Part shown: positions 12,001 through 21,000 of the stretch, one piece after another
How positions within the stretch are numbered: the first letter of the stretch is position 1
How the letters are laid out: each line of letters opens with the position of its first letter
Assembly (NCBI GenBank): GCA_963766715.1
Contig: CAVYBH010000013.1
Coordinates: 291,166 to 355,165, forward strand
Source of the DNA: an uncultured delta proteobacterium
GTDB taxonomy: Bacteria; Myxococcota; Myxococcia; Myxococcales; Anaeromyxobacteraceae
Length of the DNA: 64,000 nucleotides
Direction of reading: 5' to 3'
Made by a program: the position numbers

Positions 12001-15000
12001 CATGGCGAGCAGCATCACCGGGGAGGACCACTCCTTCCACTTCGCGCTGGCCACCAGCCGCTTCAAGGACAACCGCATCCCGCCGAAGGGCTTCGACGTC
12101 GGCGGCGCCGCGGAGCGGATGGTCGAGCCGGTCTGGGACGGCGTCTCCCGGCCCGACTGGTTCACGGCGGCGGAGTACGCGGGCGGCTACGACGAGGTCT
12201 CGCTGGCCGTTCCCGCCGGCGCGACGCAGGTCTCGGTGAAGGTCTACTACCAGACCACCAGCCGGGAGTACGTCGAGTTCCTGCGCGACGAGATCAACGG
12301 GACGGGCCGGCTCACGCTCCCCGCCGCCGCCTACGTGGCCCAGACCGATCCCTTCTTCACCGGGCTCCGCGCCTGGGGCGACACCATCTTCGCGCTCTGG
12401 GAGCACAACAAGGACCGGGACGGCGCGCGCCCCTTCCTGATGGCCCAGGGCTCGTGGTCCGCCCCGTCGCCGGCGGCGGTCCGAACCGGCCGGCGCTGAC
12501 CCAAACCCGGCCCGGATCCTCCCCCCGAACCCTTTCGCCACCCCCCGGCTCACAGGAGGGAAGGCGTGGTTCTCACAGGAGGAATCATGAAGTTGCTGAC
12601 CAAGGTGAAGAAGTCCTGCTGCACGACCGAGAAGGTCGCGCAGTGCTGCGCCAAGGCCTCCCGGCTCGTGTCGGGTTGCCACGACTAGTCGCACCCGGGG
12701 CGGGCCTCCGGGCCCGCCCCACCCCTTTCCCATCGAGGTAGAGCGTCATGAGCGAGTTCGTGAAGGAGATCACCCAGGCCGACTTCGAGGCGGAGGTCGC
12801 CCGTTCGACCCTCCCGGTGGTCCTCGACTTCTTCTCCACCGAGTGCCCGCCCTGCGAGGCGCTGGCGCCCAAGTTCGACGCGGTCGCCGATCAGTTCGCC
12901 GGCAAGGCCCGCTTCCTGAAGATCTTCCGGCAGGGCAACAAGGACCTGGCCGTGAAGCTCGGCGTCACCGGCAGTCCCACCCTCCTGTTCTTCCAGGGCG
13001 GGGCCGAGGTCGGCGAGCGGATGAGCGGCGAGGAGATCAAGCGCACCGCCATCAAGGCGCAGGTCGAATCCATGCTGGGCGCGTAGGGGGATCCATGAGC
13101 GAGAAGTTCGACGTGATCATCGTGGGAGCCGGGCCGGCGGGGCTGTCCGCCGCCATCTACGCGTCCCGCGCGCGGCTGAAGACGCTCGTGCTCGACGAGA
13201 GCATCCCGGGCGGGCAGATGAAGACCACCCACAAGGTCTCCAACTATCCGGGCTTTCCCGAGGACGTGAAGGGCTCCGACCTCGCCAAGGCCTTCTCGGC
13301 CCAGGCCGAGCGCTTCGGCGCGAAGATCCGCCGGGCCGTCGAGATCACGGCGCACGACCTCTCGGGTCCCGTGAAGACCTTCGAGCTCGACGAGGAGGAG
13401 AAGGTCGAGGCCCCGGCGGTCATCATCGCCACCGGCGCGAAGCCGCGCGAGCTGGGCGTGGCCGGGGAGTCGAAGTTCCGCGGCCGGGGCATCTCCTACT
13501 GCGCCACCTGCGACGGGGCCTACTTCGACGGCAAGGAGATCCACGTCATCGGCGGGGGCAACTCGGCGGTCGAGGAGTCGCTCTTCCTCACCCAGTTCGC
13601 GAAGAAGGTCACCATCATCCACCAGTTCGACCACTTCCAGGCCGAGCCGGTCAGCGCCGCAGAGGCCCTCGCCAACCCCAAGATCGAGGTGATCTGGGAC
13701 TCGGAGCCTCGCGCCTTCGTGGGCGAGACGCAGCTCGACAAGCTCCGCATCGAGAACGTGAAGACGAAGGAGGTCCGCGAGCTGGCCACCGACGGCGTCT
13801 TCATCTTCGTGGGCTACGTCCCGCGCACCGACCTCGTGAAGGGGCTCGTGAAGATGAACGAGTGGGGCTACGTCGAGACGAAGGAGGACATGTCGACCGA
13901 CGTCCCCGGCGTCTACGTCGCCGGCGACATCCGCTCCAAGCGCTTCCGCCAGATCACCACCGCCGTCGCCGACGGGACCATCGCGGCGCTGGCGGTCCAG
14001 AAGTACGTGAAGGACCACAAGGACCAAAAGGCGGCCGCCTGATGGGGCTCCTCTCCCGGCTCTTCGGTCCCGGCGCGCCCAAGGTGATGCCGGTGCACGT
14101 CGACGACGCGACCTTCGTCGCCGAGGTGGCTCGGTCCGACGTGCCGGTGGTCCTCGACGTCTGGAGCCCGGGCTGCGGCCCCTGCCAGATGATGGAGCCC
14201 ATCGTCGTGTCGCTGGCCGGCAAGTACCAGGGACGCGTCAAGGTGGCCGAGCTGAACGCCGCCGAGTCGGGCGCCACCGCCGCGCGGCTGGGCGTCATGG
14301 GCACGCCGACCATCCTCTTCTTCAAGGGGCGCCGGGAGGTCGACCGGGTGGTAGGGTTCGTCGGCGAGCGCTACCTCGCGGACGTGGTGGACAACGAGCT
14401 CCTGGGAGTGACCAGTGACCGAACGTGACGGTGCCGGGAAGCCCTTCGACGCGGCGGCTCACCTCGAGTCGCTCTCCCGCGAGGAGCTGATCCGCATCAT
14501 CCAGGACGACGCCAAGAACTGGCTGGCCCACGACGGCCTCTGGTTCCAGGCGGTCGAGGCGGTCCACGGCATGGGACCGGCCATCGACGCCGACCGGGCC
14601 GCCTGGGAGAAGTTCACCGTGGTCGAGGCCCGCCGGATCATGGAGCGGCTCGGCATGGCCCCCGGCGGCGGCATCCCCGCCCTCGTCGAGGCCCTGAAGC
14701 ACCGGCTCTACGCGCGGCTCAACGTGCAGGAGGTCACCGAGCTCTCCGACACGCGCGCGGTCTTCGTCATGCGCGACTGCCGGGTGCAGTCGGCGCGCAA
14801 GCGCAAGGGGCTTCCCGACTTCCCTTGCAAGTCCGTGGGCATCGTGGAGTACTCGGAATTCGCCCGCGCCGTCGATCCGCGAATCCGGACCCGCTGCATC
14901 GCCTGCCCTCCCGATCCCCACGGCGACGACGTCTGGTGCGCCTGGGAGTTCACGCTCGATGAGCCCCGACCCGAAGCACGCTGAGCAGGTCGCCCGCGCC

Positions 15001-18000: not shown

Positions 18001-21000
18001 CCGGCCCGGACGAGCCGGGAAGAGCGGCGGCTCGGGCCAGCGCTGGTCGAGGTATTCCAGGATGGCGAGCGAGTCCGCCACCTTCGCCTCACCGTGGACG
18101 AGGACCGGAACCCCGCCCCGGGGATTCACCTCGAGCAGGGCAGGCGGCTTGCTCCCCAGGTCGACCTCGCGCGTCCGGTAGGGAATCCCCTTCTCGGCCA
18201 GCGCGGCGCGCACCCGCATGCAGTAGGGGCAGGCCCAGGCGTTCCAGAGCTCCATGTCGCCTCCCTCACATTCCCGGCAGTCGCGGGAACTGCTTGCGCT
18301 TGGAGGCCTTGAAGTAGGCGCCCCACCCCTTCTTCATCCAGTGGCCGACGACCGGGAGCGGGATCATCTGCTCCTTCGTCTCGTCCCGGTGCACGTAGGC
18401 GGCGCCGTTTCCCATGTCCATGAGGCAGGTGATCGAGACGTGGGGCAGGTAGCTCTCGCGCTCCGGCCGCCCGGCCACCTCCGCCGCCACGTTTGCCGCC
18501 GCCACCCGGGCCATGACCTCCGCGAGGTGACCCTGCTTGGCGCGCCAGGCGGGGCCCTCCAGGGCAGCCGAGTCCCCCACCGCCCACACTCCCGGGAATC
18601 CAGGGACCGCGCAGCTCCCGTCGATCTGGACGAAGCCCGCCTCGTTGCGCGGCAGGTCGCTCGCGCCGAGGACCGGGTGCCCGCCCTGCGCGGGGATGAA
18701 GACGGTGAGGTCGCTCTCGAGCCTCGACCCGTCCTCGAAGACCACCGGACCGCCCGGGTCGAAGCCCGCGATCTTCTTCCCCACGCGCATCTCCACGCCC
18801 AGCTTGCCGAGCATCTGCTGGATGGCGGCGACGGCCTTCTTCCCCATGCGCTCCCCGGGGCTCGGCATGGGCGCGAAGAAGGCGAGGCGGAACCGGTCGC
18901 CGAGTCCGCGCTTCTGGAGCAGGTGGGCGACGTTGAACATCACCTCGAAGACCGGGCCCCCGCGAACCGCCGAGGGGTCCTTGGGATTGCCCCCGAAGCC
19001 CATGGCGATGGTGCCGCCGCCCTTCGCGAGCAGCGCCTCTAGCGCATCGTGCAGGCGCGACGCGTTCTCCGGGTTGCCGGAGAGGCCGAAGGTGTGCTCG
19101 ACGCCCTTGGGGCGGAGCGGCGTGCCGCCGATGGCCAGCACCAGGTGATCGGCGGAGAGCTCCTCCCCGTCCACCACGGCCGCCCGGCGCGCGCCCGAGA
19201 TCGACTCGACCTTGCCTTGACGGAAGGTGAATCCGTGCCGCCGCGCCACGTCGGCCAGGTCGAGGCAGACGTCGCCGAAGGCCCGCTCGCCCGTCACGAT
19301 CCAGATGGACGTCGGGTAGATCCAGAGGAACGGCCGGTCGGAGACCAGGGTGACGTCGAGGCCGGCCTTGCGGAGGTGGATGGCGGCTTCCAGCCCGGCG
19401 AAGCCGCCTCCGAGGACGAGTGCTTTCTTGGCCATGTGGGTGTGAGCCAGTCCGGCCCGGAAAGGGTCGGCCCGGGACGGCCGTTCAGGCGCGGGACGAC
19501 GGGAGCCGTGCCGCCCACCAGGCCAGCATGCCTCCGGCGAGCTGGCGGGCGTCCAGGCCCGACCTCCGCAGGAGGCGGACCGCCGGCGGACTGCGATGCG
19601 CCGACAGGCAGATGGCGACGACCCGTCGCCCCGGATCGAGCTCCAGGGAGGCCAGGCTGGCCTGGAGCGACGTCACCGGCACGTTCACGGCGCCTTCCAG
19701 GTGGCCCGCCGCGAACTCGACGGACGAGCGCACGTCGAGGAGGAACGGCGGGGACTCGCCGTCCATCTCCCGGGCCAGGTCGGCCGGACGGACCTCGGGC
19801 ACCTGCCCGAAGGGGAACCACCACGGGACGTTCATGCCTGATTCAGAGCCGTTACCTCGATGGAAGGTTCGGCCAGCGCCGCAGCGGAGGAGCCTACCCG
19901 ATCCGGTACGCCCGTTTCCCTGGACTCCCGCCTCCCGCGGAACGATCATCTGGACTCCACGCGCAGATGGAGGTCCGTCATGACGGTCGAGCTCTCCCGG
20001 GACGAGGTGAAGATCCTCCTGCAGTCGCTCTCCAACTGCCTGGCCACCTGCAAGACCCACGCGGCCAAGCCCTCGGCGAAGTGCCCGGACTGCGACGCGG
20101 CCCGCGCCGTGAAGACGAAGCTCGAGAAGCAGGCCAAGGCCTAGGAGCCCGACATGAAGATGCTCACGAAGAAGAAGGCCTGCTGCTCCCCGGAGAAGAC
20201 GGCCCAGTGCTGCGCCAAGGCGTCTCGGCTCGTGTCGGGCTGCCACGACTAGGCAGCGGCGGACCGCAGCACATCCCCAGCCCCTGGAGCGCCCGCACCG
20301 TGGCCGCCAGCTCGGCCGCGAACCGGGCGCAGTCCACGCAGGCCTCCAGGTGGAGCGTCACCTCCACCTGTTCCCGGACGCCCAGCTCGCCGTCCAGGTA
20401 GTCGGAGAGCAGGTCGGCGATGCGCTGGCAGGAGGTCGGCACGCGAGTCCTCGGTGGCTGGGATCGTGCCCGGAGTGCGCCGCGCCGCCTCGATCAGGCG
20501 CCCGGCACGGGTTCCTGCGTCGAGCTCCCCACCCCGAGCGCCTTCAGGACGTTCGCCATGGGGCAGAAGCCGGTGAAGGCGCTCTGGAGCAGGTTCAGGC
20601 CCACGAACCCGGTGAACCACAGCCAGTTCGCGCTGTGGAAGAGCGGGCTCGCCGGCGCGCCCAGCGCGAGCGAGAGCAGGACGAACGAGCCGGCGAAGAT
20701 GCGGATGTAGCGTTCGATGGTCATGAGTTCCTCCGGCCGTGAGAGCCACTTCCCGCGGAAACGGTGCGTCCCACCCCGCGGATCACGGCGGAGGGCCCGC
20801 GGTGGAAGGGGCCCTCGTCGAGCTCGACCTCGGCTTCCTCGAGGATCTTCCCACTCGACCTGCGGGAAGTCGGCGCGCAGGAGGGCGGCGTCGTACAGCA
20901 GGCTCGCCTCGCGCGGCCCCCCGCTGGGCCGGCCCAGCTGCCGCGGCGTGAACGCCTCGACGATCACGACCCCGCCGGGGACGAGCGCCGCCGTGGCCGC

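Follow-up and report, generated by a model that had tools for sequence, protein, structure and literature searches.

Two peptide genes and the cassette around them

The window analyzed here, a stretch of 64,000 nucleotides from an uncultured member of the Anaeromyxobacteraceae, carries two very short genes for cysteine-rich peptides, and all of the neighbors that an earlier note had named, that is, thioredoxin (Trx), thioredoxin reductase (TrxR), an ArsM-like methyltransferase, a radical SAM/SPASM enzyme (rSAM) and a DUF5714 protein, are present between them (Table 1). Strong AGGAG-type ribosome-binding sites precede both peptide genes (AGGAGGA, 5 nucleotides 5′ of the ATG, for gene A; AGGAG for gene B), and the encoded peptides are 84% identical. 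Two copies per genome are found in 10 of 13 other genomes of the genus; a third copy was not found in this genome, where the best further match was 40% (E 0.8). Within the 59 nucleotides that separate gene A from the thioredoxin gene lies a hairpin (RNA fold −32.4 kcal/mol, z −2.8) that the terminator scan does not call because it lacks a T run; its inferred role is that of a partial stop or an mRNA stabilizer.

Table 1. Features of the locus, in window coordinates; full-flank loci are those rSAM loci that have 6 kb or more on each side (n = 47).
Feature	Position	Strand	Description
Peptide gene A	12587-12688	+	33 aa, five Cys, C-terminal GCHD-stop; translation MKLLTKVKKSCCTTEKVAQCCAKASRLVSGCHD
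10-bp G+C hairpin	12697..12720	+	Directly 3′ of the peptide A stop, 5′ of trx
Cassette thioredoxin, CPPC active site	12748..13086	+	PF00085, 70.3 bits (cut-off 23.5)
Thioredoxin-disulfide reductase	13095..14042	+	TIGR01292, 368.5 bits, over cut-off 343.45
Second thioredoxin (CGPC), accessory	14042..14428	+	PF00085; 9/47 full-flank loci
DUF6125 protein, accessory	14415..14984	+	PF19620, 287 bits; 7/47 full-flank loci
Short ArsM-like SAM methyltransferase, 220 aa	14959..15621	+	NF008823, 160.6 bits, below cut-off 263
Radical SAM/SPASM enzyme, 450 aa	15618..16970	+	PF04055; TIGR04085 SPASM, 41.6 bits (cut-off 27)
DUF5714 Cys-rich protein	16990..17701 (start approximate)	+	PF18978, 185.8 bits for 17219-17701
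Context genes: GST, SQR-like flavoprotein, rhodanese	17674..19835	-	Pfam; between both peptide genes
54-aa four-Cys protein (CLxTC...CxDC)	19980..20144	+	Usual partner, located upstream of the peptide gene
Peptide gene B	20154-20252	+	32 aa, five Cys; translation MKMLTKKKACCSPEKTAQCCAKASRLVSGCHD

Across loci, the core set consists of the ArsM-like methyltransferase, the peptide, rSAM, DUF5714, a thioredoxin with a C[PA]PC motif, TrxR and a four-cysteine protein of 47–66 amino acids; a description of this cassette was not found in the literature or family libraries searched. The C[PA]PC motif occurs in 80 of 92 Trx-like matches, with CGPC confined to the second thioredoxin type. DUF5714, related in NCBIfam only to a “metal-binding double selenoprotein”, is split over two frames in the window, its N-terminal CxxC part lying in the other frame; it is intact in two loci of the same genus. 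In four further loci it is fused to rSAM, and Trx–TrxR fusions also occur. The four-cysteine protein, found in 24 of the 47 full-flank loci, has 31 distinct homologs, including some from Gracilibacter and Acidobacteriota, and matches no Pfam or NCBIfam family. The genes that separate the two peptide copies in the window are lineage-specific (SQR in 13, rhodanese in 9 and GST in 2 of the 47), and most loci lack a protease or exporter. Thiol–disulfide genes (Hdr-like CCG/4Fe-4S, DsbD_TM, Redoxin) recur beside the cassette, and one Bacillota locus adjoins HMA, cupredoxin and DUF326 genes.

The proposed link between peptide and rSAM is borne out by their distribution: the rSAM ortholog is present in 63 of 363 genomes of the order, and every one of these 63 has the peptide. 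Within one genus of 37 genomes, 18 have both and 19 have neither; the six genomes with a peptide and no detected rSAM are all incomplete. The 47 full-flank loci contain the peptide motif in 41 cases, the methyltransferase in 46, Trx in 43 and TrxR in 40, and in at least three of the six where no peptide lies within 8 kb it is found farther off or on another contig. Placement directly upstream of thioredoxin, earlier taken as general, is seen only in Anaeromyxobacteraceae-type loci, whereas in Archangium-type, Bacillota and Acidobacteriota loci the peptide gene is immediately 5′ of rSAM. The order methyltransferase–peptide–rSAM is seen in Gracilibacter, other Bacillota, Peptococcaceae CEB3 and Acidobacteriota loci, and in 11 of 12 loci of one Bacillota class.

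Conservation and spread of the peptide

The peptide genes are real coding genes under purifying selection on the protein. When 44 distinct DNA versions are compared in pairs over their last 16 codons, 3871 differences are synonymous and 870 non-synonymous, and invariant residues are encoded by several codons (for valine, GTG 22, GTC 16, GTT 5 and GTA 1). Both reading frames lie at the coordinates given earlier.

The peptide matches no Pfam or NCBIfam family. Its conserved N-terminal motif (M-K-x-L-T-K) is followed by a linker that varies in length and then by an invariant C-terminus, AQCC[AS]K.S..V.GCH[D/N]-stop, which contains three cysteines and ends in Asp (Asn in one case); judged by sequence, this layout matches that of a leader and core. 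The five-cysteine pattern originally described is the commonest form (77 of 84 distinct peptides), and the remainder have three (four peptides), four (one) or six (two). Most forms carry a Glu after the first CC pair; that Glu and the pair itself are absent in several lineages, and the first pair is thus dispensable. In Archangium-type loci the peptide is 64% conserved, against 44–45% for rSAM.

A scan anchored on rSAM, in which the peptide was not part of the query, turned up the same peptide in Gracilibacter and other Bacillota, in Peptococcaceae CEB3 and in a metagenome-assembled genome of the Acidobacteriota, and the peptide is present in 22 of 112 genomes of the Bacillota class. The family therefore extends beyond Myxococcota into several bacterial phyla; its earlier confinement to Myxococcales was an artefact of the search pattern. 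The suspicion that this pattern had also produced the conserved C-terminus is likewise removed, as the scan anchored on rSAM alone returns it.

The radical SAM enzyme and the methyltransferase

The CX3CX2C motif and the seven-cysteine SPASM pattern of rSAM are invariant among orthologs. The N-terminus of its AF2 model has a beta3-alpha3 topology (pLDDT ~80) and is predicted to be RRE-like, and the best Foldseek matches of the model are CteB (5why, 5wgg) and SuiB (E 4e-12 to 1e-10, ~440 columns). Its best NCBIfam matches are maturases of cysteine-containing peptides, all below their cut-offs (124 bits against 400–600). A complex model of peptide and rSAM reached an ipSAE of 0.78 (median of three runs), against 0.00 for the best of three controls; 116 of 157 solved complexes reached this mark, but only 2 of 215 mismatched pairs did so. 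Contact agreement among runs was at least 47% and partner pLDDT at least 44. In the model, peptide residues 1–8 lie on rSAM residues 25–31 and 51–60, and residues 26–28 lie at the barrel strands, with a peptide pLDDT of 44–47, below 50. The model's success may reflect memory of solved leader–RRE complexes.

The cassette methyltransferase aligns with residues 69–249 of CmArsM and has cysteines at the places of C72, C174 and C224, which are invariant in 14 of 14 orthologs. Cassette methyltransferases span 207–227 amino acids and have neither the C-terminal domain of ArsM nor its N-terminal region around Cys44; the one in the window is nonetheless the best ArsM-like gene of its own genome. The genome's ACR3 lies on a different contig, and no annotated locus has an ars gene in the cassette. 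Because the three As(III)-binding cysteines of ArsM are retained, a peptide that works with thiols or metalloids has to be considered on a par with a classical RiPP natural product.

Interpretation and comparison with known systems

We consider it probable that both peptide genes supply a conserved and hitherto undescribed rSAM cassette with its ribosomally made substrate, with a RiPP-like matured thiol peptide as the most likely form. The earlier proposal of a RiPP-like precursor or substrate is partly supported, by co-occurrence, gene position, the RRE-like domain and the complex model; its taxonomic limit is wrong. As modeled, the N-terminal motif would be a short leader that binds to the RRE-like domain of rSAM as a strand. 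The C-terminal core would thread into the barrel, where the enzyme would abstract a hydrogen and, if it works like its nearest relatives, join one of the three invariant cysteines in a thioether-type cross-link. DUF5714, which is fused to rSAM in some lineages, would act on the same substrate, the ArsM-like enzyme would methylate the peptide or a thiol-bound metalloid that it presents, and the private Trx/TrxR pair would keep the other thiols reduced or recycle them. Because most loci lack a protease or exporter and thiol–disulfide genes recur, the product is more likely to be a peptide cofactor that stays in the cell, as a thiol or as a metal(loid) binder, than a secreted antibiotic. Against this explanation, a leader of merely 6–10 residues is short for an RRE, and rSAM scores far under the cut-offs of the NCBIfam maturase models. 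In addition, the peptide is more conserved than the enzymes, which is unusual for a RiPP core and would suit a metal site or interaction with more than one partner.

Three As(III)-binding cysteines in the methyltransferase and exactly three in the peptide core would also fit a metalloid carrier that needs no modification by rSAM. The peptide would then be an unmodified tri-thiol metallochaperone for arsenite or other thiophilic metalloids (Sb, Se or Te, for example) that delivers its load to a mini-ArsM, with Trx and TrxR recycling enzyme and carrier and rSAM taking the metalloid or a small molecule as its substrate; in known organoarsenical pathways, ArsL and ArsS act beside ArsM. The invariance of the methyltransferase cysteines, its rank as the genome's best ArsM-like gene, the richness of all cassette partners in cysteine, the selenoprotein relative of DUF5714 and the HMA, cupredoxin and DUF326 genes at one locus speak for such a carrier. 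We nevertheless think it unlikely: the architecture of rSAM, with its RRE-like and SPASM domains, is that of a peptide maturase rather than ArsL or ArsS, the complex model has the peptide bound to the RRE and reaching into the barrel, the annotated cassettes lack ars genes, ACR3 lies elsewhere, and the methyltransferase is truncated relative to ArsM and falls below the family cut-off.

Still less probable, in our judgment, is a small stable subunit, that is, a metal- or Fe-S-binding mini-protein or redox relay that shuttles disulfides among rSAM-DUF5714, the 54-amino-acid protein and the private Trx and is neither substrate nor modified product. Such a role would suit a sequence conserved across phyla more strictly than the enzymes, the possible metal ligands among its invariant Cys, His and Asp, the dedicated C[PA]PC thioredoxin and the thiol–disulfide genes nearby. 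However, the gene stands immediately 5′ of an RRE-bearing, maturase-type enzyme, the classical position of a precursor, the modeled contact is on the leader-binding face of the RRE, and a 31-residue chain with a variable linker and so low a pLDDT is unlikely to fold independently.

That the small gene is an attenuator leader of the thioredoxin operon, its Cys codons sensing cysteine or thiol supply, as the proximity of copy A to trx and the strong hairpin between them might suggest, is very improbable and is rejected as a general explanation by the gene order of other loci, where rSAM and not trx comes next, and by the codon evidence that non-Cys residues too are kept through synonymous change; moreover, the gene after copy B is on the opposite strand, and the hairpin has no T run.

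It is informative to set the substrate peptide that we favor beside known systems. CteB/ScfB (PDB 5why, 5wgg) is the SCIFF maturase, a thioether-forming rSAM/SPASM enzyme with an N-terminal RRE. As in SCIFF, a small, highly conserved, Cys-rich peptide lies next to an rSAM/SPASM enzyme whose N-terminal domain is RRE-like, the core set has no protease or exporter, and CteB is the closest structure to the rSAM model (E 3.6e-12, 441 columns). Unlike SCIFF, the cassette peptide falls in no NCBIfam or Pfam family and rSAM reaches 54.6 bits on the SCIFF-maturase model (cut-off 425); the ArsM-like methyltransferase, private Trx/TrxR, DUF5714 and 54-amino-acid protein are not known from SCIFF loci. PapB (freyrasin) and QhpD-type enzymes, which are Cys-to-Asp/Glu thioether synthases, likewise pair a SPASM enzyme with a Cys peptide. 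Their models match rSAM at 88.3 and 72.8 bits (cut-offs 340 and 453), and the cassette peptide keeps an invariant C-terminal Asp and usually the Glu after the first CC; it has no fixed Cys-x-Asp/Glu repeat, since several lineages lack that Glu and the first CC.

ArsM, an arsenite S-adenosylmethionine methyltransferase (CmArsM, PDB 4fr0/4fs8) with known pairings to the radical SAM enzymes ArsL and ArsS, shares with the cassette enzyme its SAM-binding fold, the three cysteines and an adjoining rSAM gene. Dependence on a thiol reductant, as in ArsM, is plausible because Trx/TrxR are adjacent. Unlike ArsM, the cassette enzyme is short and scores below the family cut-off (Table 1), and unlike the ArsM pairings, its rSAM partner is of the peptide-maturase type and ars resistance genes are absent from the cassette.

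RRE-dependent rSAM/SPASM enzymes make the redox cofactors mycofactocin and PQQ from peptides, and MftC and PqqE are among the matches of the cassette rSAM. Unlike these systems, the cassette has no peptidase to free a small cofactor, its conserved core is Cys-based, its partners are ArsM-like, Trx/TrxR and DUF5714, and its rSAM scores 45.9 on the mycofactocin rSAM model (cut-off 265). Like them, it has a short ribosomal peptide whose C-terminal end is invariant and on which an rSAM/SPASM enzyme would act; dedicated redox partners accompany this peptide, and its role is likely intracellular.

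Two five-cysteine peptide genes in a sulfur and thiol neighborhood

Translation bears out the earlier note's claim of two small open reading frames in the window, peptide A and peptide B, each of which is preceded by an AGGAG-type ribosome-binding site; no further credible copy is present in the genome. Both are coding genes and not chance reading frames of a 70% G+C genome. Specifically, among 44 distinct DNA versions, gathered with the loose pattern CC...CC...C-x-x-stop, pairwise codon differences over the last 16 codons comprise 3871 synonymous and 870 non-synonymous changes, and several codons are in use for invariant residues.

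Features of the window (positions in the window)
Feature	Position	Strand	Remark
11-nt direct repeat CTCACAGGAGG	12549-12583		two copies, just 5′ of peptide A
Peptide A	12587-12688	+	MKLLTKVKKSCCTTEKVAQCCAKASRLVSGCHD
10-bp G+C hairpin	12697-12720	+	between peptide A and thioredoxin
Thioredoxin (Trx)	12748-13086	+	CPPC site
Thioredoxin reductase (TrxR)	13095-14042	+	over TIGR01292 cut-off
Second, canonical thioredoxin	14042-14428	+	
DUF6125	14415-14984	+	
ArsM-like methyltransferase	14959-15621	+	220 aa
Radical SAM/SPASM enzyme (rSAM)	15618-16970	+	450 aa
DUF5714	16963-17701	+	in two frames
GST, SQR-like flavoprotein, rhodanese	between DUF5714 and 54-aa genes	-	
54-aa four-Cys protein	19980-20144	+	followed by peptide B
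Peptide B	20154-20252	+	MKMLTKKKACCSPEKTAQCCAKASRLVSGCHD
DUF1847, Cys-rich	22943-23317		
Second DUF1847 tblastn match	near 26040-26290		~3 kb downstream of the first
YeeE/YedE-type sulfur transporter	27748-29606		split in two; the larger ORF has a fused rhodanese domain

The 84 distinct peptides found, 31–50 residues long, share an N-terminal motif resembling M-[KRQ]-x-[LVI]-[TI]-K, then a linker of variable length, and finally an invariant core, A-Q-C-C-[AS]-K-x-S-x-x-V-x-G-C-H-[D/N]-stop, which ends in CHD in 83 of the 84 and in CHN in one. Judged from sequence, this conserved patch, variable linker and invariant C-terminus make up a leader-plus-core layout. Five cysteines are present in 77 peptides, six in two, four in one and only the three of the core in four; because the count varies in this way, the first CC pair and the glutamate behind it are not essential. 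Conservation is higher in the peptide than in its enzymes: between the window and the Archangium-type loci the peptide is 64% identical and the rSAM 44–45%. Neither peptide matches an NCBIfam family at E≤0.01, peptide A matches no Pfam family at E≤1, and the curated precursor models for Cys-rich RiPPs in these collections (SCIFF and others) do not match the peptide. The ESM Atlas holds the sequence, but with neither a usable look-alike nor a model.

Near peptide A, the second copy of the direct repeat provides the ribosome-binding site, and the repeat may be a duplicated ribosome-binding site or an operator; a promoter scan 5′ of the gene returned none. Soil metatranscriptome contigs with at least 88% likeness to the peptide-trx-trxR part come from four runs in three studies, and one of them (X18, record 17) begins within peptide A (12638), spans the hairpin and ends in trx (12867). 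These contigs are a weak hint of expression, as DNA may be present in RNA libraries and a contig is evidence neither of one continuous transcript nor of its level; likewise, depth does not serve to rank the genes of the operon, and uncovered parts carry no meaning.

In addition to the genes in the table, the neighborhood holds a YgaP-type membrane protein and an AhpC/TSA-type redoxin, and from this company of genes the local setting is therefore one of sulfur and thiol chemistry. The Anaeromyxobacteraceae form of the cassette lies amid sulfur genes in two parts, peptide-Trx-TrxR and methyltransferase-rSAM-DUF5714, with the peptide gene present in two copies in 10 of the 13 other genomes of the genus. 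DUF1847 also adjoins the cassette at six loci fetched from other genomes (L049, L052, L119–L121 and L124) and may be a loosely linked accessory; the YeeE/YedE-type transporter is again nearby in several Anaeromyxobacteraceae loci.

A gene set kept together across phyla

Within the Myxococcales (363 genomes), the peptide is present in 72 genomes and the rSAM orthologue (E≤1e-60) in 63, each of which also has the peptide; the link between peptide and rSAM proposed earlier is thus real. Of the nine genomes with the peptide only, we regard three as spurious (G082, G249 and G266; weak matches, E 0.001–0.004), and the other six (G087, G100, G103, G105, G112 and G123) are incomplete assemblies at 70–93% completeness. 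The largest genus has both genes in 18 of 37 genomes and neither in 19, complete single-contig genomes among them. The pattern is all-or-none, with the caveat that genomes of one clade are not independent.

Because the search behind the earlier note had fixed the last 15 residues of the peptide, we anchored a second search on the rSAM alignment, which gave 217 relatives in 185,579 species genomes; the best 80 of these were examined as loci. The same peptide C-terminus recurs among these loci, which removes the suspicion that it was set by the search pattern. The best 80 include the cultured Anaeromyxobacter species A. oryzae, A. terrae, A. soli and A. oryzisoli and Archangium-type MAGs, and they carry the cassette beyond the Myxococcales, to which the earlier note had confined it: outside the phylum it is found in Gracilibacter (L128, L129), a Bacillota MAG (L131), Peptococcaceae bacterium CEB3 (L132) and an Acidobacteriota MAG (L130). 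Each of these has, immediately ahead of its rSAM gene, a short reading frame that encodes the same C-terminus. The peptide occurs in 22 of the 112 genomes of the class to which Gracilibacter and CEB3 belong, and the order methyltransferase-peptide-rSAM recurs in 11 of 12 loci fetched from that class.

Among the 47 rSAM loci flanked by 6 kb or more on either side, the methyltransferase lies within 8 kb in 46, Trx in 43, the peptide motif in 41 and TrxR in 40. The 54-aa protein (24 of 47) and DUF5714 (17 of 47, with a truncated query) are lower bounds, since tblastn with the window's proteins may miss divergent members. Gene order is shuffled among lineages while the set stays together; the peptide is directly upstream of the rSAM gene (<400 nt, same strand) in 11 of the 47. 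Furthermore, rSAM and DUF5714 are fused into one protein of 689–700 residues in L094, L128, L129 and L131, and Trx and TrxR into one protein in L051, L052, L128, L130, L132 and others; these two Rosetta-stone fusions tie parts of the cassette to one another.

The flanks differ by lineage. In Archangium-type operons the last gene encodes an OPT-family oligopeptide transporter and overlaps the fused Trx-TrxR gene at the latter's end (L051, 12729-14501; L052, 5542-7230), which suggests transport of a peptide or of a metal chelate in that lineage. Beside the cassette in four Bacillota-class loci there are HdrB/C-like CCG and 4Fe-4S dicluster genes (L132, 2796-4348; L145, 3344-4210; L149, 11808-13640; L151, 3040-4009), DsbD_TM and redoxin genes after the cassette in L145, and redoxin matches in L146 and L152. 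Flanks in the Bacillota class also hold a second TrxR-like flavoprotein and an XRE-type regulator, and HMA, cupredoxin and DUF326 genes adjoin one Bacillota locus. Among the annotated loci, neither an ars resistance gene nor a protease nor a dedicated ABC exporter belongs to the constant set.

Two loci carry unexpected taxon labels, which may be binning or naming errors: L112 (CAYURO010000010.1, labelled an Enterobacteriaceae MAG), with an rSAM 63% identical to the window's and the gene order of L113, a locus labelled Myxococcota, and L117 (CAZVTW010000517.1, labelled a Bacteroidales MAG), at 41%.

Proteins of the cassette

The rSAM carries a CX3CX2C motif (C100, C104 and C107, invariant in nine of nine orthologues; PF04055, 55.6 bits against a cut-off of 29.5) and a fully invariant seven-cysteine SPASM pattern (C346, G359-x4-C364, C403-x2-C406-x5-C412-x3-C416 and C432; TIGR04085, 41.6 against 27). 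It falls under every NCBIfam equivalog cut-off, and the best-scoring of these models describe maturases of Cys-rich peptides: CefB (124.5 bits, cut-off 600), TIGR04463 (124, 525), the geopeptide maturase (119.8, 400) and PapB (88.3, 340). The SCIFF maturase model gives 54.6 bits against 425. The best whole-length PDB matches of its AF2 model by Foldseek are CteB and SuiB, then TigE and SkfB; overall pLDDT is 69.6, and the SPASM part is of middling confidence. The N-terminal domain (pLDDT ~80), a candidate RiPP recognition element (RRE), is predicted to form strands at 8-11, 18-22 and 27-31 and helices at 33-42, 54-59 and 67-87, and Pfam PqqD gives no match there at E≤1.

Modeled together, the peptide and the rSAM reach a median ipSAE of 0.78 over three runs, a mark that 116 of 157 solved complexes attain, as do 2 of 215 mismatched pairs; the best of three controls scored 0.00. 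At least 47% of contacts are common to the runs, with a partner pLDDT of at least 44. Peptide residues 1–8 are placed on residues 25–31 and 51–60 of the N-terminal domain, and residues 26–28 at the barrel, a predicted arrangement that may reflect likeness instead of binding because leader-RRE complexes are already among solved structures.

The methyltransferase aligns to residues 69–249 of CmArsM, with cysteines at the places of C72, C174 and C224, the As(III)-binding residues of that enzyme; all 14 orthologues compared, drawn from four families, keep the three. Within its own genome it ranks first among ArsM-like genes, and it scores 160.6 bits with NF008823 against a cut-off of 263, covering positions 61–232 of 272. 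Membership of a canonical ars operon is rejected for this genome, where the ACR3 arsenite pump lies on another contig, and the annotated flanks of the cassette loci contain no ars genes. In L117 (457-894) the methyltransferase ends in GKCCCNN-stop and the peptide has the three core cysteines only; the extra pair may have moved there from peptide to enzyme.

The TrxR exceeds its TIGR01292 cut-off (368.5 bits against 343.45). The cassette Trx does so with PF00085 (70.3 against 23.5) and reaches only 64.7 against 96.8 with TIGR01068; its active site is C[PA]PC, not CGPC, in 80 of 92 Trx-like matches across phyla. The 54-aa protein belongs to a two-helix CLxTC...CxDC family, for which Pfam offers only an unrelated motif (best E 0.013).

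DUF5714 has 14 invariant cysteines, an N-terminal double CxxC ribbon and the motifs MHGPEHH, GGxCGxxGACG and PRCCKR. Its model is a helical domain of confident fold (pLDDT 87.4) with no clear solved relative: Foldseek against the PDB gives nothing at E≤0.001, and a profile search of PDB sequences gives zinc-finger-like noise alone (best E 0.006). The best VIA-align matches are CyuA (9fsl; Z 6.1, rmsd 4.0 over 126 residues), then split-Soret cytochrome and PrpD/IRG1-type proteins (Z 5–5.6), all below the tool's meaningful level for helical folds, and we draw no function from them. In the window the Cys-rich N-terminal part stops at CDACHSG, with the remainder one frame over, and no ATG, GTG or TTG start was found for that part; orthologues of the same genus (L058 and L087) are uninterrupted. 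The break looks like one extra G in a run of G near 17139-17141 and would be either a genuine frameshift or a mistake in the assembly.

A probable RiPP-like system and its alternatives

The evidence best fits a RiPP-like system, a reading that we consider probable. Co-occurrence, gene order, fusions, motifs and fold likeness are observed, and each chemical step is inferred. The peptide would be the substrate of the putatively RRE-bearing rSAM/SPASM enzyme, which, by analogy with its relatives, would most likely install a thioether-type link. DUF5714 would act on the same substrate, the short ArsM-like methyltransferase (mini-ArsM) would methylate the peptide or a metalloid held by it, and the private Trx/TrxR pair would serve the remaining thiols.

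Other readings deserve consideration. The main one is that the peptide is an unmodified tri-thiol carrier of metalloid for the mini-ArsM, which we think unlikely; that it is a stable redox or metal-binding subunit seems to us distinctly improbable. We give a still lower probability to peptide-templated metalloid chemistry, in which As(III) or a similar metalloid would be bound by the three invariant peptide thiols, the rSAM/SPASM-DUF5714 enzyme would forge a carbon-metalloid or carbon-sulfur bond on the peptide, and the mini-ArsM would methylate the metalloid. If true, it would be a third, peptide-based pairing of radical SAM and ArsM-type enzymes and the first metalloid-centred ribosomal peptide, something categorically new. 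Finally, we reject as extremely improbable a leader ORF (attenuator) of the thioredoxin operon, because the gene downstream of the peptide differs among lineages, copy B has no follower on its strand, and residues other than Cys stay the same while their codons change synonymously.

Neither NCBIfam (June 2026) nor Pfam has a model that names the peptide. The searchable literature, outside which lie about 1.7 million PMC articles, yielded nothing on DUF5714 or DUF6125 and no paper with the peptide motifs or with Anaeromyxobacter, arsM and radical SAM together, which is not proof of absence in print; otherwise only unrelated papers were returned, none combining the cassette components. The cassette is widespread in anaerobic and microaerophilic soil and sediment bacteria, with cultured Anaeromyxobacter strains among the carriers, and solving it could yield a new peptide-derived thiol cofactor or a metalloid-handling route in paddy-soil and mine-water bacteria and would also assign functions to DUF5714 and DUF6125.

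It is informative to set the cassette against known systems, as it joins two separate fields, RiPP-type radical SAM peptide chemistry and ArsM-type thiol and metalloid chemistry, and adds a reductase system of its own. Compared with solved ArsM enzymes of 377–383 residues, the methyltransferase is much shorter and lacks the Cys44 region and the N-terminal and C-terminal parts. In maturases of the CteB and SuiB kind the precursor gene adjoins that of the maturase, and here too the peptide gene is directly upstream of the rSAM gene or within 8 kb of it at most loci; we rate the cassette as belonging with the rSAM/SPASM peptide systems.
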